Positions 19,840-32,000 of a stretch of 32,000 nt of DNA are shown here, piece by piece. The notes under the pieces are model-generated. The model saw nothing but the letters and a program-made list of their open reading frames with translations, was not told the DNA's origin and ran no database searches. The stretch spans positions 420,001-452,000 of the forward strand of contig NZ_CP011041.1 in the NCBI RefSeq assembly GCF_002310835.1, given 5' to 3'. Position numbers and translations under genes: made by a program. Source of the stretch: Pseudoalteromonas tetraodonis (GTDB lineage Bacteria; Pseudomonadota; Gammaproteobacteria; Enterobacterales; Alteromonadaceae). Each line of letters opens with the position of its first letter. Position 1 is the first letter of the stretch.

Positions 19840-20595
19840 GTGATTATACAGTGTGCGTTTAAAGAGTGTCGGCCATATTTGAATGAGTTAGAAACACGCT
19901 TTGGGCTTGCTCAATGGGCGGAGCAAAGCCGTGGCTTTAGTTTGCATTACGATGATAAAGGGCTAAGCCTATATAAAACTGATGAGCCTAAACTAGGTGC
20001 AATTAACGTAGACTTTGTAACTGGTGCCGTTGCACATAGGCGTAAATTTGGTGGTGGTAAAGGGCAATCAATTGCTAAAGCGGTTGGCCTTAATAAGGGC
20101 GCAACGCCAGTGGTACTCGATGCAACCGCAGGGCTTGGACGTGATGGTTTTGTTTTAGCTTCGCTAGGCTGTAAAGTGATTTTGCATGAGCGCCACCCCG
20201 TGGTTGCCGCGCTGTTATATGACGGTTTACAACGTGCTTATAACGATAGTGAAATTGGCCCATGGATGCAGCAAAATATGAGCTTAATATTTGGCTCAAG
20301 CCATACCTTACTTGCTCAATGTGACAGCATGCCCGATGTAGTGTACTTAGATCCTATGTTTCCGCACCGTGAAAAATCAGCATTGGTTAAAAAAGAAATG
20401 CGCGTATTCCAAGAATTAGTAGGTGGCGATACCGACGCCGATGATTTACTCGAGTTTGCCTACCCCCTTGCCAGCAAACGTGTGGTGGTTAAACGCCCCG
20501 ATTACGCACCATTTTTAAATGATAAAACTCCAAGCATGCAAATCAAAACTAAAAAGAACCGCTTTGATGTATATGTAAAAGCCGCGATGGTTTAG
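19840..20595 (+). CDS. rsmJ: 16S rRNA (guanine1516-N2)-methyltransferase RsmJ (YhiQ)
   Basis: The 251-aa product starts at GTG and has the SAM-binding motif [16 protein letters not shown]. It lies near prlC, as in enterics. Confidence 0.9.
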
Positions 20596-20609
20596 GTTAA
20601 AGGTTAAAG

Positions 20610-20659
20610 TGTCGCTGCAACCATAGTTTGACATAATACAACCATAGTTTGACATAATT
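20610..20659 (+). mobile_element. Putative right end of a Tn7-like (TnsB/TniA-type) transposon: 8-bp terminus plus two abutting 21-bp repeats
   Basis: TGTCGCTG occupies 20610-20617. CAACCATAGTTTGACATAATA occupies 20618-20638 and is repeated at 20639-20659 (20 of 21). This mirrors the Tn7R layout of an 8-bp TGT terminus followed by contiguous TnsB sites. It lies 14 nt past the rsmJ stop. Confidence 0.6.
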
Positions 20660-21271
20660 AAAGCTCAAGTAGAGCTACTCATCATTAATGAGTTTCAGGA
20701 GTTAATAGAGTTTAAAAGCGTACAAGAACGACAACAAATTGCAAATGGGTTAAAGTTTATTAGTGAAGAAGCCAAAGTGCCAATAGTACTGGTTGGTATG
20801 CCTTGGGCTGCAAAAATAGCTGAAGAACCTCAATGGGCTTCTCGCTTAGTTAGAAAAAGAAAACTTGAATACTTTAGCCTAAAAAATGACAGCAAGTACT
20901 TTCGCCAATATTTGATGGGGTTAGCTAAGAAAATGCCATTTGATGTACCTCCTAAGCTTGAAAGTAAAAATACCACAATAGCGTTGTTTGCTGCATGTCG
21001 AGGTGAGAATCGAGCTCTTAAACATCTACTGTTGGAGGCTTTAAAATTAGCACTAAGTTGTAATGAGTATCTTGAAAATAAACATTTTATTACTGCTTAT
21101 GACAAGTTTGATTTTTTTAATGATAAGGAAAAACTAAAATCAAAAAATCCTTTTAAACAAGACATTAAAGATATTGAAATTTATGAGGTAATCAAAAGCT
21201 CATCATACAACCCAAATGCATTAGATCCTGAACATATGCTCACAGGTCGAAAGTTCGAAATAGTAAAATAA
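20660..21271 (+). pseudogene. 5'-truncated TniB/TnsC-like AAA+ transposition ATPase gene (Walker A region missing)
   Basis: The frame is open from 20648 and reads KAQVELLIINEFQELIEF...AKVPIVLVGMPWAAKIAEEPQWASRL...LKNDSKYFRQYL. This matches the TniB-family pattern from Walker B onward (LIIDE.., IPIVLVG, D.Q.ASRF). There is no N-terminal P-loop segment. The only in-frame start is the GTG at 20777. Confidence 0.7.
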
Positions 21272-21508
21272 ACTGTATAACCTAAGTTCTGGTTAGGTGG
21301 AATAAAAGAGCAAGTCTTAATTTACACTATCTACGGTAAATAGGGATCCTACAAAATATATTAGTCCGTCGTCTGATCATCTCTACTTTCCTATGGACCC
21401 TATTTAATTAATGCAAGTAAGGACTCAACTAGCGCCAATTAAGTCTTAGACACCAAATTGGGGAGCTGTATGATCGCCCTACTTCTTAGTAATAAATTAG
21501 GTTTAAGT

Positions 21509-22513
21509 ATGAAAAGTAAATTGTTAGAAAATCAAAAGTTAGGTTTTGGAACTGCTCCTTTAGGCAATATGTTTAGAAATATACCGGAGGAAGAGGCATT
21601 AGCCACTATAACAGAAGCTTGGAATCAGGGTATCCGCTATTTCGATACAGCACCATTTTATGGCGCTGGTTTAGCAGAAATAAGATTGGGACAAGTGCTT
21701 AAAAACTATAATCGTGATGAATATACATTAAGTTCAAAGGTTGGTCGTATTATCCTCGATGAGGAGGTTGAGTCTCAAGAGTTCGGTGAAAAAGGCGCTT
21801 TATTTGAGCATGGAAGGAAGAATAGAGTTGTTAATGATTATACTGCTAGTGCAACTTTAAGATCTATTGAAGATAGCTTAAAACGATTAGACACAGACAG
21901 CTTAGATATTGTCTATGTACATGATATTGCACAAGACTTTTATGGCGACAATTGGTTAGCTAAATTTGAAGAGGCCAGAAATGGGGCATTTAAAGTATTA
22001 GCTGATTTAAAAAAAGAAGGTGTTATTAAATCTTGGGGTTTAGGTGTAAATAAAGTTGAACCAATTGAACTTGCTTTAAATCTTGAAGAAGATAAACCTG
22101 ATGCATTTTTACTAGCAGGAAGATATACACTGTTAGATCATGAATTGGCACTACAACGTCTGATGCCTAAAGCCGCAGCACAAAAAGTTGATATTATTGT
22201 CGGAGGTCCATATAGCTCCGGCATTTTAGCAGGGGGGTCTAATTTCGAATATCAAAAAGCTCCTACTCATATTGTTAACAAAGTAGCTAAAATAAAAGCA
22301 GTTTGCGAGAAATTTTCGGTCAGTATTAAAGCTGTAGCACTCCAGTTTGTATTAGCCAATGATGCGGTTAGCTCAGTTATTCCTGGTGCAAGTAAACCTT
22401 CTAGAATTGCTGAAGATATCTCAGCCTTAGAAGAAAAATTGCCTCATGAACTATGGCTTGAATTAAAGCGTGAGGGTGTTATTTCTGAACTCGCTCCAAC
22501 ACCAACTAAGTAG
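21509..22513 (+). CDS. Aldo/keto reductase family oxidoreductase (D-threo-aldose/L-fucose dehydrogenase-like subgroup)
   Basis: The product carries the AKR motifs LGFGTAPLGN, YFDTAPFYG and VYVHD. The start is ambiguous: ATG at 21509, ATG at 21470 or TTG at 21458. Confidence 0.8.
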   Translation: MKSKLLENQKLGFGTAPLGNMFRNIPEEEALATITEAWNQGIRYFDTAPFYGAGLAEIRLGQVLKNYNRDEYTLSSKVGRIILDEEVESQEFGEKGALFEHGRKNRVVNDYTASATLRSIEDSLKRLDTDSLDIVYVHDIAQDFYGDNWLAKFEEARNGAFKVLADLKKEGVIKSWGLGVNKVEPIELALNLEEDKPDAFLLAGRYTLLDHELALQRLMPKAAAQKVDIIVGGPYSSGILAGGSNFEYQKAPTHIVNKVAKIKAVCEKFSVSIKAVALQFVLANDAVSSVIPGASKPSRIAEDISALEEKLPHELWLELKREGVISELAPTPTK

Positions 22514-22523
22514 GGAAAACGAC

Positions 22524-22937
22524 ATGCTAAAAGCTCAAGCTCAAACTGTAATAATAGCTCCCTCTAACGATGTATGGGAGCTAATTGGTGGATTTAATAG
22601 CCTGCCAGATTGGTTACCGTTCATTCGGGAAAGTAAGCTTTCTGAAGGTGGTAGAGTTCGAACATTGCAAAGCCATAAAGGTGATAAAATCATTGAAAGG
22701 TTAGAAGGCTTTAGCGAAGATAAAACGTTTTACAGCTATTCAATTATTAACGCGCCATTTCCAGTGAGTAGCTACCTTTCAACTATAAGTGTAAAAGCTA
22801 TAGATGATAAAAGCTGCCAAGTAACGTGGTTTGGTTCATTCATGGCTGACGACAGCGTAAAAGATTCTGATGTGATTGAACTGTTTACTACTATATATTC
22901 AGACGGTCTAAAGGAGTTAAGCAATAATTTCGTCTAA
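22524..22937 (+). CDS. SRPBCC (START/Bet v1-like, polyketide cyclase/dehydrase-type) ligand-binding protein
   Basis: The 137-aa product has a family-typical N-terminus (I.AP...VW.L.GGF..L..W.P). I use the ATG at 22524, which follows GGGAAA, rather than the 22470 start in the track that overlaps the AKR gene. Confidence 0.7.
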   Translation: MLKAQAQTVIIAPSNDVWELIGGFNSLPDWLPFIRESKLSEGGRVRTLQSHKGDKIIERLEGFSEDKTFYSYSIINAPFPVSSYLSTISVKAIDDKSCQVTWFGSFMADDSVKDSDVIELFTTIYSDGLKELSNNFV

Positions 22938-22946
22938 GAAATCACT

Positions 22947-22981
22947 AACCCCAGTACATTCATCTTGTATTGGGGTTTTTA
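22947..22981 (+). terminator. Intrinsic terminator after the AKR-SRPBCC pair
   Basis: The stem pairs AACCCCAGTACA with TGTATTGGGGTT and includes one G-U pair. TTTTT follows. Confidence 0.7.
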
Positions 22982-23014
22982 ATGTTTCAATAGTTGAAGG
23001 CTAATACGGTATAG

Positions 23015-23884
23015 CTAACTCATTAGTTGCTCTCTAAATTCTCTTACTATCGGTCTCAGTATTTCAGCATGCCAAGCGACCCATAGAGTAATAGAGAAAT
23101 TTAGTGCATTGAGTTTAATAGTTACTACATTCTTTGGTAGTTGTTGTTTCAAGCTCTCCTGAATCATTGTAATCCCATTGCCAGCAGCAACCAAGCCAAG
23201 GGCACTGACAGGATCATCTACTTCGATCAAGATATTAGGAGAAAACCCTTTCTTAGCGCACTCATTGATAAAGCCTTTTTTGTACGGACCTTTTACTGTC
23301 AGCCAAAGCTCCTCGCTTAGATCTACCTCGGTAATAGTTTCTTTTTTGGTAAAATGATGGTCGTCAGCAACAACAAGTACCATTGGATCTTCATAAATTT
23401 TTGAAAATTTAATAGTGGTATGTTTTTCTAACAGCTCATCTACAATTGCAATATCAAGACTTCTTTGAATCAACCCTTCGAATTGCTTGTCACTTTTCAA
23501 GTGGTATAAAGCTGTATGAATTTTCGGTTTCGTTTTTCTTAACTCTCGAAGCTTAGACGGCAATATATTTGAGAACATTGCGCTATTAACGTACCCGATA
23601 CATAGTCCACCCTCTTCACCTTTTCCCAACCGTTTTCCTAGTGACTCTAAACGAGTAGCATGTGTTAAAAGAGCTTTTGCCTCTTTAAGGAAAGTATGTC
23701 CGTCTGTTGTCAGAATTATTCGCTTTGCTTTTCTTTCGAATAATATTAAGCCAAGTCTATCTTCTAATTGAGATATTTGTCTGCTTAATGGGGACTGAGA
23801 TATGAACAGCACTTCTGCGGCTTTGCCGACATGTTCTAATTCTGCCACAGTTATAAAATAATGAAGTTGCTTTAGATCTAGCAT
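23015..23884 (-). CDS. LysR-family transcriptional regulator
   Basis: The 289-aa product has an N-terminal wHTH (LKQLHYFITVAELEHVGKAAEVLFISQSPLSRQISQLE) and a LysR substrate-binding domain. Confidence 0.9.
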   Translation of the reverse strand: MLDLKQLHYFITVAELEHVGKAAEVLFISQSPLSRQISQLEDRLGLILFERKAKRIILTTDGHTFLKEAKALLTHATRLESLGKRLGKGEEGGLCIGYVNSAMFSNILPSKLRELRKTKPKIHTALYHLKSDKQFEGLIQRSLDIAIVDELLEKHTTIKFSKIYEDPMVLVVADDHHFTKKETITEVDLSEELWLTVKGPYKKGFINECAKKGFSPNILIEVDDPVSALGLVAAGNGITMIQESLKQQLPKNVVTIKLNALNFSITLWVAWHAEILRPIVREFREQLMS

Positions 23885-24119
23885 TGTAATGGCACCGTTT
23901 AATATAGAATTTAGCTTTTATAGCTACTGGTACGCTAGCACGTATACTTTTAACTACATATCTCAAATTTAAGATAGAGATTCCTTAAAGAAAATAATTG
24001 TCATTGTTTTTAATCTAGCCATAGTTAGCAATTGATGACATACATTTTAGGGTTAAAAGTTTAATGAATGGAAGCTATAGCTAGCCATCTAGGTTAAAGT
24101 AAATATAAAAAATATTAAT

Positions 24120-24149
24120 AAACAGCCACATCAATAGATGTGGCTGTTT
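24120..24149 (-). terminator. Hairpin terminator downstream of the dkgB-cyclase-moaF-like operon
   Basis: A 13-bp perfect stem pairs AAACAGCCACATC with GATGTGGCTGTTT around a 4-nt loop. Both flanks are AT/T-rich. Confidence 0.55.
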
Positions 24150-24203
24150 ATTTAGCTTCGGTAAAATCATAGTATCTAAATAGAATATGTGTCCTTATCG
24201 AGC

Positions 24204-24530
24204 TTAGCTCGATAAGCCATTATCTTTCACTACGAGTGTACCTTTAAGCCTATAAAACTCATTATTAGCCGTTGAGAAAAAAGTCATTGATGTACCCTTT
24301 TTAAAGTCATCTAAATGAACCACTGTGGCTCCCGAATCTTCTTGCCACGAGATTAAATATACGCCTTCAGATACCTCGTTCCACTCACATGAAGATTTTC
24401 CCTTTGAGCCCTTACCTGGTCCTTCAATAATCTCATATTCAACTTGAGAGGCATCAGTATTATATTTATTTGTAGCAACTAAACCGTCATATGAGACAGT
24501 AACGAACTTTTCTGCAAAGAATTTTGACAT
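24204..24530 (-). CDS. Small MoaF-like / calycin beta-barrel protein
   Basis: The 108-aa product shows the pattern F..K...V.Y.dGl...Y.i..GPG.G..G...W.EV..GVYLISWQE..G.TVVH..DF..G, which resembles MoaF N-terminal domain proteins. I prefer the ATG at 24530, which follows AAGGTGA, over the GTG at 24539. Confidence 0.55.
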   Translation of the reverse strand: MSKFFAEKFVTVSYDGLVATNKYNTDASQVEYEIIEGPGKGSKGKSSCEWNEVSEGVYLISWQEDSGATVVHLDDFKKGTSMTFFSTANNEFYRLKGTLVVKDNGLSS

Positions 24531-24535
24531 ATATT

Positions 24536-25462
24536 TCACCTTATAGCGATTGGGTTTATATTAACTTGGGTCGATCCTTTATATAGAGGATGACCAAGTA
24601 CGAATAAAAATTCGAAAATACCGTCTTTTAGTAGCTCTCTTGTATCTATCAATTCAAGGTTATAAATCCCTTTCTTAGCTAACATGAACTGATTGACAGG
24701 AAATTCTAGCCCCTTAGGGTTAGGGTAAACCTCAGAAGCCCAAGTATCACCACCAAACGCTACAATCTTCTTATTAGCTAGCCAAGCAGCTGCTTCCATA
24801 TCGATACCAGGCTCAGTCTCTAAAAATTTTTTATTATCTTTGCCAATAAGGTTTAACCATCCGGTATTAAATAAAACAACATCGCCTTCATTGATAGTTA
24901 TCTTCTGCTTGGCTAGTACCGCTTTAATATCTTTAACTGTAATGACAGTACCTCCATCAACCACCGGGGTATTAAAGTGAGATGTCATATCTAAAACGAC
25001 TCCTCGCGTTACTATAGGTGGTACTTTTTCTATACCTAATTTAGTTACACCTTCAACAGTGACAAAATCTTCAGCTTTATTACCATTATAGTAAACATTA
25101 TCAATACCTATATGGCCAATACCGTTTAGCTGAGTCCCAATTCCAGTCCATCCATTTACAAGCTCATCATTAAATGTAAATTTATTTACACCCAATGTTT
25201 TACCTGCTTGACCTTCAGGTTGTACATTGTAAAGATTGAAAGATCTATGTCTAAAAGCGGGTAAATCTTTACTAACGGGAACAGCTAAAGAGTAAACTTT
25301 ACCAGTGCTAACGAGATCTACCGCTTGCTTTACTAAACTTGAAGTTAATAAATTAGCAGCTCCAATTTCATCGTTCTGGCCAAATTCTGAGGAAGTCCAA
25401 TCATTAGCCAAAGCATTAAAACTGACTAAAATTGATAATGAAAGAGTTTTAATTTTTTGCAT
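24536..25462 (-). CDS. Secreted putative cyclase-family (kynurenine formamidase-like fold) protein with a non-canonical motif
   Basis: The 308-aa product has a signal peptide (MQKIKTLSLSILVSFNALA). Its overall pattern matches PF04199-type proteins (VVLDM, FNTGW, FGGDTW). GIGTQLNGIGH stands where HxGTHxDxPxH is expected. Confidence 0.6.
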   Translation of the reverse strand: MQKIKTLSLSILVSFNALANDWTSSEFGQNDEIGAANLLTSSLVKQAVDLVSTGKVYSLAVPVSKDLPAFRHRSFNLYNVQPEGQAGKTLGVNKFTFNDELVNGWTGIGTQLNGIGHIGIDNVYYNGNKAEDFVTVEGVTKLGIEKVPPIVTRGVVLDMTSHFNTPVVDGGTVITVKDIKAVLAKQKITINEGDVVLFNTGWLNLIGKDNKKFLETEPGIDMEAAAWLANKKIVAFGGDTWASEVYPNPKGLEFPVNQFMLAKKGIYNLELIDTRELLKDGIFEFLFVLGHPLYKGSTQVNINPIAIR

Positions 25463-25463
25463 C

Positions 25464-26270
25464 TTATATATCCCACTCTGGTGCTAGCCCTTCTGGGTTA
25501 ACTAGTCGGCCATCTCTTTCCAAGTTATCAATGAGCTGAACCGTTTTCTCATCCAAAACAATTTTCAGCGCCTGCAAGTTACTCGCTAAATTCTCTCGTT
25601 TTGTGGAAGATGGAATAACGGCATAACCCTTATGTAATGCCCAAGCTAATGTAAGCTGAGCGGGGGGGATTTGTAACTCTGATGCTAAGTCATTAATAGT
25701 AGAGTCATTTAATACACTGCCATATGCCAGTGTCATGTATGAAGTAACCTTTATACCTAAAGTTTTCATATGATCTACGAGCTTATTATTCTGTAAGTAA
25801 GGGCTTAGTTCTATTTGGTTTGTAGCAATATTTTCTGCGCCCAAAATATCAACAGCTTTATCGATAAGTTCAATAGTAAAATTTGATACGCCAATTTCTT
25901 TTGTTAATCCTAAACGTTTAGCTTCAGCTAAGGCTAAGAGGTACTCTTCAATTGCAACGTTGCTTGTAGGTGCTGGCCAATGAATAAGAACAAGATCCAG
26001 ATATTCAACCCCGAGTTTTGTAATGCTCTCTTTGACACTTTGAATCAGCTTATCTCTTTCGTAATTGTCTACCCACACTTTAGTAGTTATATATAAGTCA
26101 CTCCTATTTATATCTGCACGTTTTAGTGCTTTACCAATATCACTTTCATTCTGATATATTTGGGCTGTGTCAATAGCCCTGTAGCCAAGCTCTATCGCAT
26201 TGCTTACTGATTCAATAACAACATCACCTGTTAACCTAAATGTACCCACTCCGAAAGATGGTACTGCCAT
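25464..26270 (-). CDS. dkgB: 2,5-diketo-D-gluconate reductase B-like aldo/keto reductase
   Basis: The product is collinear with E. coli DkgB as I recall it: MAVPSFGVGTFRL, ELGYRAIDTAQIY, LIHWP, ATNQIELSPYLQN, IPSSTKRENL and a C-terminal PEGLAPEWD. I prefer the ATG at 26270, which lies 7 nt after GAGGT, over 26276. Confidence 0.8.
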   Translation of the reverse strand: MAVPSFGVGTFRLTGDVVIESVSNAIELGYRAIDTAQIYQNESDIGKALKRADINRSDLYITTKVWVDNYERDKLIQSVKESITKLGVEYLDLVLIHWPAPTSNVAIEEYLLALAEAKRLGLTKEIGVSNFTIELIDKAVDILGAENIATNQIELSPYLQNNKLVDHMKTLGIKVTSYMTLAYGSVLNDSTINDLASELQIPPAQLTLAWALHKGYAVIPSSTKRENLASNLQALKIVLDEKTVQLIDNLERDGRLVNPEGLAPEWDI

Positions 26271-26380
26271 AATCATTACCTCGTATAGTTATTTAGTATA
26301 AATAAGACATACATATTAGCTGGTAATTTTATTTACATTAAGGCACAGTAAGTAAAATTATATTTGAATTATTATCAACA

Positions 26381-27280
26381 ATGAAAGCTACTTTAGACGA
26401 ATTAAATACCTTTGTTGCGGTAATTGATTGTGGAACCATTAGTCACGCCGCTGATAAGTTAGACTTAACAGTTTCTGCAGTAAGCCGGAGTTTATCTAGG
26501 CTTGAAGAAAAGTTAGGTACAACATTGATAAGTAGAACAACACGCAAAATGGAGCTAACGATTGAAGGACAAGCCTATCTAGAAAAAGTTAGAAAAATCC
26601 TCGATGATATCAATGAGGCTGAAGAAATGTTGGCTTTAAAAAAAGGGATGCCTTCAGGTAGGTTACGTGTAGATGCAGCAACACCATTTATGCTAAATGT
26701 TATCGCACCTCTAATTAAAGAGTTCGTTCACAAATATCCCCACATACAATTAGAGCTCAACAATAATGATCAAGTAATAGATCTTTTAGAAAAGCGCACT
26801 GATGTCGCAATTCGTATTGGTGAGTTACAAGATTCGACACTGCACGCTGCGCTTATAGCCAAAAGTCAAATACGCATTTTAGCAAGCCCAAATTACCTTA
26901 GCCGGCATGGTGTACCAACCTCAATCCAGGATTTAAAAAACCATTCTCTAATTGGTTTCAGCAATCTAGAAAAATTAAACTACTGGCCTATATTAGATTC
27001 CGAAAAAAAGCTATTTCATGTGAACACTAGTATAAAAGCCTCAAGCGGAGAAACAGTAAAAAAACTTGCACTAGAAGGAGTTGGTATTGCTTGTTTGTCA
27101 GATTTTATGACAGCAACAGAAAGACAAAACTCAGAATTAGTTCAACTTTTTGCTGATGTGACAATTGAGTCTATGCAATCAATTAACGCTGTGTATTACA
27201 AGAATTCCGTAGTGTCTAGTCGTGTTAGCTCTTTCATTAACTTTCTTAAAGAGAGGCTTAATACTCAGTTGTTTTTGTAA
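26381..27280 (+). CDS. LysR-family transcriptional regulator divergent from dkgB-like gene (YafC-like arrangement)
   Basis: The 299-aa product has a wHTH (LNTFVAVIDCGTISHAADKLDLTVSAVSRSLSRLE). It shares a 110-bp divergent intergenic region (26271-26380) with the AKR gene. Confidence 0.88.
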   Translation: MKATLDELNTFVAVIDCGTISHAADKLDLTVSAVSRSLSRLEEKLGTTLISRTTRKMELTIEGQAYLEKVRKILDDINEAEEMLALKKGMPSGRLRVDAATPFMLNVIAPLIKEFVHKYPHIQLELNNNDQVIDLLEKRTDVAIRIGELQDSTLHAALIAKSQIRILASPNYLSRHGVPTSIQDLKNHSLIGFSNLEKLNYWPILDSEKKLFHVNTSIKASSGETVKKLALEGVGIACLSDFMTATERQNSELVQLFADVTIESMQSINAVYYKNSVVSSRVSSFINFLKERLNTQLFL

Positions 27281-27281
27281 A

Positions 27282-27653
27282 GCAGCTTTAAACTTAATAG
27301 AAAGCATGGTTGATATGATTTACAGCGTACGCGACGAAATGAACGCCGGCGATGAGCTAGGTATTGATATTGAAGAAAAAGGCTTTTACGACGCCCTAAA
27401 AATGTTAGCGGTTAAGTACGACTTTGACTACCCCGAAGATAAGCTCATTGAGCTTGCCCAAGCGGTAAAAGTAATTGTAGACGACAAGGTAAAATTTGTA
27501 GATTGGAACCACCGCGACGATATTAAATCAGCTTTAAAAGTAGAGCTGATTTTAATACTCGCTAAATTTAAATTCCCACCAATTAGCCGCGATGAAGTAT
27601 ATAAAGAAATATTTGAACAAGCGCAAAATGTGAAAGCGAATAAAAAAGTTTAA
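27282..27653 (+). pseudogene. hsdR: 3' remnant of a type I restriction enzyme R subunit gene (HsdR C-terminal DUF3387-like domain only)
   Basis: The translation ...EEKGFYDALKMLA...VKFVDWNHRDDIKSALKVELILILAKFKFPP...IFEQAQ matches the conserved HsdR C-terminus (E.aFYDAL, vDW..r..vrA.L....K..L.kygYPP, .eQA). There is no helicase or nuclease region. The upstream part of the ORF-track entry overlaps the LysR gene out of frame. Confidence 0.75.
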
Positions 27654-27720
27654 ATTACTAGGCTTAGTTTGGATGTGATTTATGGAGTTCGCGATTAAAA
27701 GCGATCTCCATAAACAAGCG

Positions 27721-28674
27721 TTATAACGCACTTTGGCTAACTACGGTTTTAGCGTTTGATTGTTCACTAAAAGTAAGTGCCTCATTAAGTTTTTCAAATG
27801 GAAATACTTTAGGTGTATCAGTGATTAGAGTTTGGTTATCTAACAGGCTTATTAATGCCTCACCCTCTTTTATGAGTTCAGTCCAGTCTTGCTCATCGCC
27901 ATAACTGTGCAAAGAGCCAAGAGCAACTTCATGATAAGAGATTGAGTTGGTAAATGCAGGAAACAGCGGTTCCTCAATTCTATCCTGAATACAGACTAAG
28001 TGGCCATTAGCTTTAAGGTAGCTTGCAAGTTTAGTAGCACTTTGTTGGCCTTTAGCATCGAATACGGCGTGGTATTGTTGCTGACATCGGCTTTGCTCCC
28101 TCAGCACTTTATTTACACCAAGTGATAAGGCCTCTGTTTTATTCGCACTTGGGCTGAGTAAATCGATTTTAACACCATTTTTATGAAGCAGCTGTATAAG
28201 GATTTTGGTGACTGCACCAAAACCAGAGACCAACACCTTTTTATTTTGCATGCTTGGCAATTTATTAAATGCCTGTATTGCAGTGAGCATGGGGCACGGT
28301 AAGCTTGCAGCTTTAGATAAAGAAAAGCTTTGCGGGAGTCTCATTACTCGTTGAAATTTTAACACTGTGTATGTTGCAAAACTGCCAGGTAAAAGCAGCG
28401 ATTGATGATAACAAACCGAGCTGCCTATAAACTCTTTAGGTACGCTTGCGCCTGTTTCAATAACAATTCCAGCGCCATCCACACCGGGTGTAAAACCGGG
28501 CGGCCAAGCTAGTGGATTGGCTTTTATAAATTTCCAATCAACAGGGTTTATACCCATTGCTTTATTTAAAACAACAATTTCATTTTCGTTTATGTTTAAA
28601 GGTGGCGCAATTGAAGATAGAAGCAGGGGTGAGCCTGCCTCTTCAAACTGCCACGCTAAATCGCAGCTGTTCAT
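27721..28674 (-). CDS. Medium-chain dehydrogenase/reductase (quinone oxidoreductase-like, zinc-independent type)
   Basis: The 317-aa product has an MDR N-terminal GroES-like pattern (INPVDWK, PGVDGAGIV) and a Rossmann motif (VLVSGFGAV). It starts 1 nt after the upstream AKR stop. Confidence 0.8.
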   Translation of the reverse strand: MNSCDLAWQFEEAGSPLLLSSIAPPLNINENEIVVLNKAMGINPVDWKFIKANPLAWPPGFTPGVDGAGIVIETGASVPKEFIGSSVCYHQSLLLPGSFATYTVLKFQRVMRLPQSFSLSKAASLPCPMLTAIQAFNKLPSMQNKKVLVSGFGAVTKILIQLLHKNGVKIDLLSPSANKTEALSLGVNKVLREQSRCQQQYHAVFDAKGQQSATKLASYLKANGHLVCIQDRIEEPLFPAFTNSISYHEVALGSLHSYGDEQDWTELIKEGEALISLLDNQTLITDTPKVFPFEKLNEALTFSEQSNAKTVVSQSAL

Positions 28675-28675
28675 T

Positions 28676-29494
28676 TTAGTTATCCCACTGTGGAGAAAAG
28701 TCAGGTGATGCTTGGCGATCGTTTTTATTTAATTGATCAATTGCGGTTATTTCTTTAGCACTAAGTGTTAAATCAGGGCTAGTTAAATTTGTAATCAGAT
28801 TACTTCTTTTAGTTGATGAAGGAATCGTTGTTAATCCATTCGCAAGTGCCCACGCAATAACAACCTCAGAAGGCGCCTTATTATGACTATTGGCAATCTC
28901 AATAATGGTTTTATCTTTGAGAACTTTACCAACAGCAAATGGCATATAACCTGTCACATGAATGTTATTTTCACTGCAAAATTCGCGTAATGACTCGTTT
29001 GTTAAGTAAGGGTGTACTTCTACTTGGTTAGTAAAAATTTCACCGTTAGGCAAAATAGCCATAGCCTGTTTAAGCAAATCAATAGTGAAATTTGATACGC
29101 CAATATTTTTAGCAAGGCCTAGCTCTTTAGCTTTAACTAGCTCACCTAAATATTCTTCCATCGGTTCATCGTTCTCTGGAGATGGCCAGTGTATCAATAA
29201 CAAATCTACATAATCAGTTTGCAGTTTACTTAGGCTTTCTTTAACACTATCAATGAATGATGCTTTGTTTAAGTTAGCATTCCATACTTTTGTAGTAATA
29301 AAAATATCGGCTCTAGGTATGCCGCTGTCGCTAATAGCTTGGCCTACTTGCGCTTCGTTGCCATAAATTTGTGCAGTATCTATATGCTTATACCCAACTT
29401 CTAACGCCATTTTTACAGAGTTGTAAGCCACTTCGTCTTCTAAGCGAAAAGTACCCATACCTAATTTTGGCATAGTGTTTAAATTTATGTTCAT
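28676..29494 (-). CDS. Aldo/keto reductase, DkgA/DkgB-like paralog
   Basis: The 272-aa product carries LGMGTFRL, VGYKHIDTAQIYGNE, LIHWPSP and IPSSTKRSNL. By eye it is roughly half identical to the 25464-26270 product. Confidence 0.85.
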   Translation of the reverse strand: MNINLNTMPKLGMGTFRLEDEVAYNSVKMALEVGYKHIDTAQIYGNEAQVGQAISDSGIPRADIFITTKVWNANLNKASFIDSVKESLSKLQTDYVDLLLIHWPSPENDEPMEEYLGELVKAKELGLAKNIGVSNFTIDLLKQAMAILPNGEIFTNQVEVHPYLTNESLREFCSENNIHVTGYMPFAVGKVLKDKTIIEIANSHNKAPSEVVIAWALANGLTTIPSSTKRSNLITNLTSPDLTLSAKEITAIDQLNKNDRQASPDFSPQWDN

Positions 29495-29504
29495 TAGTTA
29501 TCCT

Positions 29505-30419
29505 TTATTTATGAAAAACGGGTAAGACATTTTTTGCTATGTCTTCCATGCTTTGTTCGATATTTATTTCATTGCGTCTAAAATGAAGGCCAATATGATC
29601 TACGCCAGCAGCCTTCATGCTGTTTAGCTCTTTTATTAAGCCATTCACTCCGGTTCTAACCCCAAAGTGGTGTCTCTCAATGGGTGCGTCTGGGTTGTCT
29701 ACAAAATCTAAATGAATAAAGCTTACATAAGGTTTGTCACCTGCAACGCTTCGCCATAGAGCTACACGTTTTACATGATCGTCAGGTGTACCTGGATACG
29801 CTAACCATCCATCGAGGTTTTCACCTATAAATTGCGGCGATTGTTGTGCAAGGCCTGCGGCGTAAATAGGGTATTGCGCTACTTGAGGGTATATTTTTTG
29901 CCCTGGTTGTAATTTAGAGTCAGACTCATCCTTTAACACCTCAATAGCTTCTCTAAAAAGCTGGCCACGAGCGGCGTAATCAACATTAAATAAAGGATAT
30001 TCTGAGGGTCTATCACCACTTGCTACACCTAAAATTAATCGGTTGTTGCTTAGCTCAGCCATTGTGTTCGCTGATTTTTTCACAAGCCAAGGCTGTCTTA
30101 ATGGCAGAACAATAGCCGCAGTACCTAGTAAAATATTGTTTGTAATACCCACTAGGTAGCCTAAGTATGTAAACGCTTCAAATACTTGTGCAGCATCGCC
30201 AAAGTTAGGGTCGTACAGTGGCACGTCTCTTACCCATGCAGTACTAAAGCCAAGCTCATCGGCTAATATAATGCGCTCTTTATGCTGTGACATATCAGGC
30301 ACACCAAAAGGCTTGCCTTCTTTAATTCGTTTTTGTTGGCCATCTCTTGACCAGTCATTGTCTAGTGGCAGTTCAACACCAATTGAAAAGCCCAAGTTTT
30401 TTAATTTATCAATAGTCAT
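29505..30419 (-). CDS. Luciferase-like (LLM class) flavin/F420-type oxidoreductase, BA3436-like subgroup
   Basis: The 304-aa product shows a TIM-barrel LLM pattern (GFS.AWVRD, ILGVASGDRP). An AAGAGG RBS lies 6 nt before the ATG. Confidence 0.7.
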   Translation of the reverse strand: MTIDKLKNLGFSIGVELPLDNDWSRDGQQKRIKEGKPFGVPDMSQHKERIILADELGFSTAWVRDVPLYDPNFGDAAQVFEAFTYLGYLVGITNNILLGTAAIVLPLRQPWLVKKSANTMAELSNNRLILGVASGDRPSEYPLFNVDYAARGQLFREAIEVLKDESDSKLQPGQKIYPQVAQYPIYAAGLAQQSPQFIGENLDGWLAYPGTPDDHVKRVALWRSVAGDKPYVSFIHLDFVDNPDAPIERHHFGVRTGVNGLIKELNSMKAAGVDHIGLHFRRNEINIEQSMEDIAKNVLPVFHK

Positions 30420-30456
30420 AATCAGCCTCTTTCGAAGAAAAAATTCGGGATTAAAT

Positions 30457-31632
30457 TTAAATAGCTTTCACTTGTTCGCGTGAATCTAGAAAACCCGATA
30501 GTCGTGTTAATACAATGGCAAATATAACGATTGATGCGCCCACCCAAGGGGTGTCCATTAACTCCATGTCTTCTACAACAACACCGCCAATGATTGAGCC
30601 AATTGCAATACCGACATTAAAGGTCGCTATATTTAAACCTGATGCAACATCTACAGCATTAGGCGTATGTTTTTGTGCTAGCTGCACAACATAGACTTGC
30701 AGACCTGGTACGTTACCAAAAGCGAAGGCGCCCCAGATAAGTAGTGTTAAAACAGCGCCAATTTGATTACCAGCTGTAAATGTAAATACAAAAAGAATGA
30801 TAGCGAGTGCGCTAAAAATACCTGTTAACGCTTTTACTGGCCCCATGCGGTCAGCTAGTTTTCCACCCCAAATATTGCCTATTGCTACTGAAACTCCATA
30901 AACAAGCATAATTAAGCCAATTGAACTGGATTCGAAACCAGAAACCTGCTCTAAAATTGGGGCTAAATAGGTAAAGGCTACGAAAGTGCCGCCGTAGCCA
31001 ACAGCTGTAATAGCGTAAACTAAAAGTAATCTAGGCTGTGTTAGCACTTTTAGTTGCTCTGAGATTTTTGCCGGTACCGCTTTTTTTAAGTTTGATGGTA
31101 CAAGAATCGCGCTACCAATAAGTGCGATTAAGCCCAATATAGAAACGATTAAAAATGTTGCTCTCCAGCCCAGCTCTTGCCCAATCCACGTACCTAAAGG
31201 CACACCGGTCACTAAGGCTACGGTTAAGCCCGTAAACATGATTGCGATTGCGCTGGCTTCTTTTTCTTTAGCAACTAAGCTCGTTGCAATGGTTGAACCA
31301 ATAGAGAAAAACACACCATGAGCCAATCCTGTTAGGATTCGGGCTACTATTAGGGTTTCATAACTTGGGGCTTGCCAAGCAAGTAGGTTACCTGCGACAA
31401 ATAAAGCCATTAAAACTAATAAAACAGATTTACGATTCCAACGACCGGTTAATGCTGTTAGCACTGGCGCTCCAATAGCGACACCGAGTGCGTATAAGCT
31501 GACTAATAAGCCTGCTGATGGTAGTGAAACACCTAAGTCTGCTGCAATAGTTGGTACTAAGCCAACAATTACAAACTCAGTTGTTCCTATAGCGAATGCG
31601 CTGAGTGTAAGCGCCAATAATGCTAAAGGCAT
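30457..31632 (-). CDS. MFS transporter (DHA1, AraJ/YdhP/NepI-like efflux type)
   Basis: The product has about 12 predicted TM segments and the typical N-terminus LAL.LSAFAIGTTEFVIVGLLP.IA.DLGVS...AG. I prefer the ATG at 31632, which follows GAGGA, over 31692. Confidence 0.85.
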   Translation of the reverse strand: MPLALLALTLSAFAIGTTEFVIVGLVPTIAADLGVSLPSAGLLVSLYALGVAIGAPVLTALTGRWNRKSVLLVLMALFVAGNLLAWQAPSYETLIVARILTGLAHGVFFSIGSTIATSLVAKEKEASAIAIMFTGLTVALVTGVPLGTWIGQELGWRATFLIVSILGLIALIGSAILVPSNLKKAVPAKISEQLKVLTQPRLLLVYAITAVGYGGTFVAFTYLAPILEQVSGFESSSIGLIMLVYGVSVAIGNIWGGKLADRMGPVKALTGIFSALAIILFVFTFTAGNQIGAVLTLLIWGAFAFGNVPGLQVYVVQLAQKHTPNAVDVASGLNIATFNVGIAIGSIIGGVVVEDMELMDTPWVGASIVIFAIVLTRLSGFLDSREQVKAI

Positions 31633-31867
31633 TTGTAGTTCCTCAATAATTAATGTGGGGTAATTTTCATTTAATTTAAGGGGAAGAAACACAGCGTATT
31701 TCTCAAAACAATTTTGTTAAAAATGCAAAAGTAAAAATGTTGGCTTGTTATTTTCAATAAAATAAGGGGCCCAGTAGTAGGTTTAATAAAGCTGTTAAAA
31801 CGGCAGGTTTTATGCGGGTTCAGAGTATGGGGTATTGGCTAGTATAAATGGGGGAGGGAAGCCACAA

Positions 31868-31910
31868 AAAAACGGCAAACAGGGTGCGGTTGCATCTCGT
31901 TTGCCGTTAA
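31868..31910 (-). terminator. Intrinsic terminator after the partial cyclase paralog
   Basis: The stem pairs AACGGCAAAC (31871-31880) with GTTTGCCGTT (31899-31908). On the minus strand a run of eight T follows. Confidence 0.65.
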
Positions 31911-31931
31911 ATAACTATGTCTAAATGGGTG

Positions 31932-32000
31932 TTACAAAATAGCGACAGGGTTAATTTGCACCTGAGTAGAGCCTTCGTATAGAGGGTGGCCAAGTACGAA
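31932..32000 (-). CDS. C-terminal end of a second cyclase-family protein (5' part lies outside the window)
   Basis: The reverse complement translates FVLGHPLYEGSTQVQINPVAIL*. This is a near-copy of the C-terminus FVLGHPLYKGSTQVNINPIAIR* of the 24536-25462 product. Confidence 0.7.
   Translation of the reverse strand, partial: FVLGHPLYEGSTQVQINPVAIL

Follow-up and report, generated by a model that had tools for sequence, protein, structure and literature searches.

The 32,000-nt stretch of Pseudoalteromonas tetraodonis DNA analyzed here (the window) carries two abutting 21-bp repeats shortly after the gene rsmJ, followed by an open frame that resembles the C-terminal part of a TniB/TnsC-type protein. 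The initial annotation took this arrangement for the right end of a Tn7-like transposon fused to a 5′-truncated tnsC gene. Which element was inserted at this locus, and how did it come to lose the rest of its machinery? Our reading, to which we assign a probability of about 0.88, is that the locus holds a decayed CRISPR-associated transposon of the PseCAST/Tn7016 family, in which a deletion of ~3.0 kb fused a right-end stub to a tnsC remnant, the whole being left as a fixed island. The features of the locus are listed in Table 1.

Table 1. Features of the rsmJ locus. Coordinates refer to the window, or to its extension where marked.
Feature	Coordinates	Strand	Basis
rsmJ, attachment-site gene	19840..20595	+	PF04445 E 3.6e-106; intact relatives lie downstream of the same gene
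Native flank, two GTTAAAG heptamers	20596..20609	.	L010 homology to 20609; Tandem Repeats Finder, period 7
Terminal repeat of the transposon right end, 8 bp, TGTCGCTG	20610..20617	+	Identical in intact L001-L004, L092 and L136
TnsB-binding site 1 (predicted from sequence)	20618..20638	+	Identical to site 1 of intact L001
TnsB-binding site 2 (predicted from sequence)	20639..20659	+	Equals site 2 of intact relatives; 2 differences from L001
Deletion junction, 8-bp microhomology TAATTAAA	20655..20662	+	Two BLAST alignments overlap on the octamer
3′ tnsC remnant, codons 130-333 of 333 and stop	20660..21271	+	Walker B to C-terminus, without Walker A
Last 19 nt of the transposon backbone common to intact relatives	21272..21290	+	BLAST homology to L001-L004 stops at 21290
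Low-GC block, putative cargo: aldo/keto reductases, SRPBCC protein, two LysR regulators, MoaF-like protein, cyclase	21291..27284	.	Pfam matches
hsdR C-terminal remnant (type I restriction R subunit)	27285..27653	+	PF11867 positions 215-328 of 329 only
Rest of the island in the window: alcohol dehydrogenase, aldo/keto reductase, luciferase-like monooxygenase, MFS transporter	27654..32000	.	Pfam matches
Oxidoreductase blocks of the island	21458-26276 and 27721-31692		Cyclase at extended 31932-32873

A transposon right end downstream of rsmJ

The product of the gene upstream of the repeats also matched the NCBIfam RsmJ model (E 1.2e-97), with a score of 326 bits that lies below the strict 422-bit cutoff of that model. 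The 8-bp terminus TGTCGCTG is separated by 14 nt from the rsmJ stop codon (20593-20595) and is followed by CAACCATAGTTTGACATAATA and by a second copy of this 21-mer, in which the last base alone differs. The positions of the stop codon, terminus and repeats, and the identity of the repeats at 20 of 21 bases, were as initially annotated. The repeats are real and non-random. When the 21-mer was searched with up to three mismatches, this pair was the only one in the 32 kb and no copy arose in 100 shuffles; the 21-bp array was also called by Tandem Repeats Finder.

In intact Pseudoalteromonas relatives, rsmJ is followed by the same terminus, by four TnsB sites, and then by tnsA, tnsB and tnsC. The intact right end of L001 reads TGTCGCTG, site 1 CAACCATAGTTTGACATAATA, site 2 CAACCATACTGTGACATAATT, site 3 AAACCATACATTGACATAAAA, a spacer and a fourth site. 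The window stub therefore corresponds to the terminus and sites 1 and 2; the right end thus retains its 8-bp TGT repeat and two of the relatives' four sites. The core of site 2, AGTTTG, falls inside the variation of the family, as in L092, and we rejected the possibility that site 2 is a recent duplicate of site 1. The right end is proximal to rsmJ and the interior of the element points away from the gene, a polarity that had been proposed from the window and that is the same in the intact relatives.

The rsmJ loci of 80 species representatives were compared. The closest of them, L010 (RsmJ 95%), has an unoccupied site without the 21-mers. The alignment of L010 with the window breaks off precisely at 20609 and picks up again 13.9 kb further on, at ~34539, just before trmJ. 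Coordinates beyond the window are those of an extension with L090, a stretch of contig BJXY01000027.1 (GCA_007991235.1) that has no mismatch to the window over 11.5 kb. The ORF of the tnsC remnant carries a P. tetraodonis GFC locus tag. The unoccupied site argues that the repeat and the frame are not native intergenic sequence. The same junction is found in four independent assemblies, one of them CP011030.1 (3.4 Mb), which argues against an assembly artefact, and the DNA of the frame is 94.5% identical to intact tnsC. A native or artefactual origin, for which nothing speaks except that the neighboring GTTAAAG heptamers are native, is refuted by the unoccupied site and the intact relatives and is given next to no weight. 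Neither of the two conditions that the initial annotation had named as refuting its reading applies: the fragment has a significant TniB match, and the 21-mers are absent from the closest unoccupied locus.

Both L010 and L013, whose sites are unoccupied, carry longer GTTAAAG arrays after rsmJ, and because of these arrays the two copies in the window are assigned to the native flank. The heptamer pair was accordingly rejected as a target duplication. The TAAAG at 20605-20609, which the initial annotation had expected to recur as a 5-bp duplication, is part of this native repeat. More generally, the native spacer between rsmJ and trmJ consists of highly variable heptamer arrays, of the GTTAAAG type by rsmJ and of GGGGTTC by trmJ; there are ~4 GGGGTTC copies here vs ~24 in L010 (window 20596-20609; L090 7010-7045; L010 10757-11135). 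In the species reached by a TrmJ look-up, trmJ does not adjoin rsmJ.

The window end lies unusually close to the gene. From the conserved rsmJ anchor AACCGNTTYGAYGT to the TGT, the window clade has 39 nt, against 59-64 nt for intact elements and most of the orphan ends. The end is ~21-25 nt closer to rsmJ than in PseCAST/Tn7016 and in all intact relatives, and it departs from the fixed insertion distance of ~48 bp from the rsmJ protospacer. In L010, the anchor and five heptamers together span 60 nt. The short distance would be explained if three heptamers (21 nt) had been lost once the element was in place; alternatively, the element may have inserted off distance.

The junction between the right end and tnsC

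The frame at 20648-21271 is open over 207 codons and matches the Pfam TniB model PF05621 (E 1.6e-9; 38 bits, cutoff 22.4). As this match covers positions 118-181 of the 189 profile positions only, the P-loop half is absent, and the profile search suggested in the initial annotation bears out its description of a TniB/TnsC fragment without a P-loop. In a protein search, the fragment was 94-97% identical over its length to 333-aa Pseudoalteromonas TniB/TnsC proteins, and its DNA is 92-95% identical to intact tnsC genes (94.5% for L001). The Walker A motif GDTGVGKS, residues 52-59 of intact TnsC, is missing, and the window copy holds residues 130-333 instead of a complete tnsC with both Walker A and Walker B. 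In the Walker B segment LLIINEFQ, an Asn stands where an Asp had been expected. The residue had been read correctly; it is not damage, however, since the intact 333-aa homologues have the same Asn. It is a trait of the family, and we rejected it as a mark of decay.

When intact TnsA, TnsB and TnsC were searched by tblastn against the window and its 9.6-kb extension, TnsC residues 129/130-333 gave the only match, and neither tnsA nor tnsB was found. Window positions 20610-20662 align to the right end of the intact relatives, while positions 20655-21290 align to the last 617 nt of tnsC and ~19 nt past its stop, at 92-94.5% identity. In L001, L002 and L003, the octamer TAATTAAA occurs both at the boundary of TnsB sites 2 and 3 and at tnsC codons 129-131 (L-I-K). 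The copies of L001 are separated by 3012 bp. Because both alignments overlap on this octamer, the junction is attributed to a single short-repeat deletion of TnsB sites 3 and 4, tnsA, tnsB and tnsC codons 1-129. The internal deletion that had been postulated from the window is thereby mapped to the base. The microhomology points to slippage or illegitimate recombination as the probable route.

Family and guidance of the ancestral element

In the contigs of the relatives, the gene order is gor, prlC, (response regulator), rsmJ, tnsA (209 aa), tnsB (613 aa), tnsC (333 aa) and cargo. Intact tnsABC was present in 2 of the 80 species-representative rsmJ loci, both from Shewanella. After tnsC, the intact relatives have two small genes, a ResIII helicase, a VspR-like gene, xre and defence cargo. 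The cargo after xre is hsdM-hsdS(-hsdR), and L002 also shows the start of hsdR. The ResIII helicase, the VspR-like gene and the divergent xre follow tnsC in elements of Pseudoalteromonas and Shewanella alike (L002 12200-14577; L107 12269-14646; L060 14475-16947; L062 5896-8357), and this conserved block may be backbone rather than cargo.

The PseCAST element Tn7016 of Pseudoalteromonas sp. S983 lies downstream of rsmJ, as do 44 of 72 Shewanella I-F3 elements, and I-F3b elements have been placed at this gene in the literature. We compared the relatives with PseCAST by its published junction probes and by individual residues quoted, with their numbers, in two preprints. All 25 quoted TnsB residues match in L001, L003 and L004, against 5 of 25 in a control shifted by four residues. 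The same holds for the seven TnsA residues in L001 and L092, and for Glu105, Asp120, Asn316 and Leu318 of PseTnsC in P0004 and P0007. Asn316 and Leu318 are kept in the window remnant. At their ends, the junction probes read TGTCGCTGCAACC. These 13 nt open the right end and are identical to window 20610-20622; a Vibrio element reads TGTTGATACAACC here. The genus and the attachment gene are also the same, and the 209-aa TnsA, 613-aa TnsB and 333-aa TnsC of the relatives thus match PseCAST/Tn7016 at every quoted residue. Compared with PseCAST/Tn7016, the window copy lacks tnsA, tnsB, tnsC codons 1-129 and TnsB sites 3 and 4, as well as the left end, tniQ-cas and the CRISPR array. Judged from these sequence matches, the family is the PseCAST/Tn7016 type of I-F3.

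Because of this family match, the ancestor was most likely CRISPR-guided, a conclusion that draws on the likeness to PseCAST and on the literature. The initial annotation had considered the choice between TnsD and CRISPR guidance undecidable from the window; with the family recognized, the question becomes largely answerable.

The closest plasmid relative is Tn6900, a tested I-F3b element of the Aeromonas salmonicida S44 plasmid pS44-1, with the annotated order tnsABC-xre-tniQ-cas8/5-cas7-cas6. Tn6900 and the Pseudoalteromonas relatives alike have tnsA-tnsB-tnsC and then xre. The Tn6900 TnsC is 45.5% identical to the full-length relative P0004, and the identities are 39-41% for TnsA, 44-48% for TnsB and 48-60% for Xre. 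The two differ in what follows: in Tn6900, tniQ-cas comes directly after xre, while the Pseudoalteromonas relatives first have the helicase/VspR pair, then xre and restriction cargo. According to the literature, the branch to which Tn6900 belongs uses ffs, not rsmJ, as its chromosomal attachment site.

No TniQ family match was found within 10 kb after tnsC in L002, L003 and L107-L112. The relatives with P0023 have the same backbone, and their sequence ends before any tniQ-cas; the contigs that carry the TnsC P0036 all end ~250 nt after tnsC. The initial annotation had pointed to the lack of tniQ, tnsD and cas genes after the window tnsC. None was found in the island, but the absence of tniQ directly after tnsC is normal among the relatives. 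Since the intact relatives have none there either, it is not a sign of loss at that place.

A TnsD-guided ancestor, that is, a Tn6230-type Tn7-like element at rsmJ/yhiQ with the same decay history, would have had several of the features described above. In Tn7 and Tn6230-type elements, too, the right end has a TGT terminus and then abutting TnsB sites of ~21 bp; this end adjoins the attachment gene, from which the tns genes point away. Such an ancestor would also fit with the fact that the island has kept no cas gene, tniQ or CRISPR repeat and that no tniQ-cas occurs within 10 kb past tnsC in the intact Pseudoalteromonas relatives. The same relatives, however, have no tnsD/tniQ in the 10 kb scanned, whereas Tn6230-type elements carry this gene directly after tnsC in a contiguous tnsABCD operon. 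According to the PseCAST literature, the family also differs from the Tn7/Tn6230 type in having no SH3-like TnsB subdomain. The missing tnsD/tniQ, the complete agreement at the quoted PseCAST residues, the identical start of the end, the likeness of the relatives' Xre to that of an I-F3b element and the published placement of I-F3b elements at rsmJ make TnsD guidance quite improbable.

Age and decay of the remnant

Three sister copies of the remnant were compared with the window copy over 612 nt. Each departs from it at a single place, and every one of the three changes is disabling: L006 has TAA in place of CAA, L008 has lost 1 nt and L009 has gained 1 nt. As these are one nonsense change and two frameshifts, the remnant protein is not under selection. 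The dN/dS ratio was 0.06-0.09 between the remnant and intact genes, and 0.09-0.13 between intact genes. Since the two are similar, most of the divergence predates inactivation, and inactivation is recent relative to the divergence among the elements. The tnsC remnant is drifting neutrally, and so, probably, is the stub; as a transposon the copy is non-functional and immobile.

The island and its far edge

The island extends from 20610 to ~34538 (extended coordinates; 13.9 kb) and is followed by trmJ and the isc-hsc-fdx genes. Its GC content is 0.34-0.37 from 20600 to ~27300, compared with ~0.42 upstream and in the core genome. The low-GC block was not found beside rsmJ in any other species locus among the 80 representatives. 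The hsdR remnant starts right after the stop of a LysR gene and coincides with the rise in GC; its position is a second deletion scar, or junction, inside the island. A protein search with this remnant returned short fragments only, and the one context examined was an unrelated defence island.

Three aldo/keto reductases and two PF04199 cyclases are distributed over two blocks of different GC, each with oxidoreductase genes, which hints at a composite origin of the two blocks. The oxidoreductase genes could be either cargo of the original element or later arrivals.

At its far edge, the island is closed by an IS3-family element of 1231 bp (inverted repeats of 39 nt; extended 33298-34528; L090 7105-8335), whose orfB ends early (218 aa). 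On its inner side, a gene is cut after ~28 codons of signal peptide. On its outer side, native DNA before trmJ begins within ~10 nt. A deletion adjacent to the IS element probably took the left end. The inverted 21-mer copies that the initial annotation had expected downstream did not turn up: there is no inverted TnsB site anywhere between rsmJ and trmJ, and the IS3 element forms the boundary in place of a left end with a 5-bp target duplication. The island likewise has no TniQ or Cas homologue (tblastn with Tn6900 proteins), and it contains neither the core of a type I-F repeat nor a further copy of the 3′ end of rsmJ; it thus has no tniQ-cas8/5-cas7-cas6 operon and no CRISPR array with an rsmJ-matching spacer.

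We propose the following course of events. An I-F3 element of the PseCAST/Tn7016 family would have entered the genome of an ancestor of the Pseudoalteromonas tetraodonis group at a site downstream of rsmJ, with its right end next to the gene. A ~3.0-kb deletion between the TAATTAAA copies would then have removed TnsB sites 3 and 4, tnsA, tnsB and the first 129 codons of tnsC. Other events presumably took the rest of the machinery, and hsdR was cut at 27285. The IS3 element, with an adjacent deletion, would have become the far edge of the island, with no left end, tniQ, cas gene or CRISPR repeat left. The locus now consists of a 50-bp stub of the right end, a dead remnant of tnsC and a 13.9-kb cargo island fixed between rsmJ and trmJ.

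The remnant is otherwise an expected relic, dead and from a known family; what makes it valuable is that its decay can be reconstructed at the level of single bases and that it is linked to PseCAST. The locus is a cleanly resolved case of the death of a CRISPR-associated transposon whose cargo was left fixed in the chromosome. Along the proposed route of decay, a short-repeat deletion took the transposase, an insertion sequence took the far end, and point changes erode the rest. The PseCAST family is being developed into a tool for inserting genes in human cells, which lends some reference value to natural variants of its ends and of TnsC. A survey that tallies such elements by their tnsC or TniB matches would miscount this rsmJ locus.

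Orphan ends at rsmJ and elsewhere

Decayed stubs at rsmJ are common across two genera, Pseudoalteromonas and Shewanella. Orphan right ends, consisting of TGTCRCTG and one to three TnsB-like sites, lie ~45-65 nt after rsmJ in L015, L018 and L019 (Pseudoalteromonas) and in L056, L064, L069, L078 and L080 (Shewanella), with no tnsABC detectable in flanks of up to 10 kb. L063 has a TnsB-like site at the same place after rsmJ.

Could such a stub still act in trans? The window stub might bind the TnsB of incoming relatives, and so confer target immunity at rsmJ or serve as one end in aberrant events, with the remnant as a possible modulator. It keeps the terminal repeat and binding sites BS1 and BS2, the parts drawn in the right-end DNA of the PseCAST paired-end complex; the frame of the window remnant is still open; and right ends without tnsABC follow rsmJ in ~9 other species loci. 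Against this activity, the changes in the sister remnants are a nonsense change and two frameshifts, and the remnant has no Walker A. We regard an active stub in the window as very improbable. That orphan stubs persist at rsmJ in many Pseudoalteromonas and Shewanella lineages through an activity in trans, be it immunity to PseCAST-type elements or aberrant mobilisation, is a broader suggestion that we consider quite unlikely. Decay of a PseCAST/Tn7016-family element remains our preferred reading of the window locus.

Further ends were seen in other contexts. In Shewanella aquimarina, an orphan left-end-like array of three spaced inverted TnsB sites ending in TGTCGCTA (L081 12660-12762) lies 1.9 kb past rsmJ, where both a right end and tns genes are lacking. 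In a metagenome scan for the end motif, among the at least 120 matching stretches listed, 118 were without the rest of the TnsB site and two were real ends. On one metagenome contig (L218 5536-5671), a left-end-like array and a right end stand back to back; after them come tnsA, tnsB and no more than the first 74 codons of tnsC, which looks like a tandem arrangement with another truncated tnsC.
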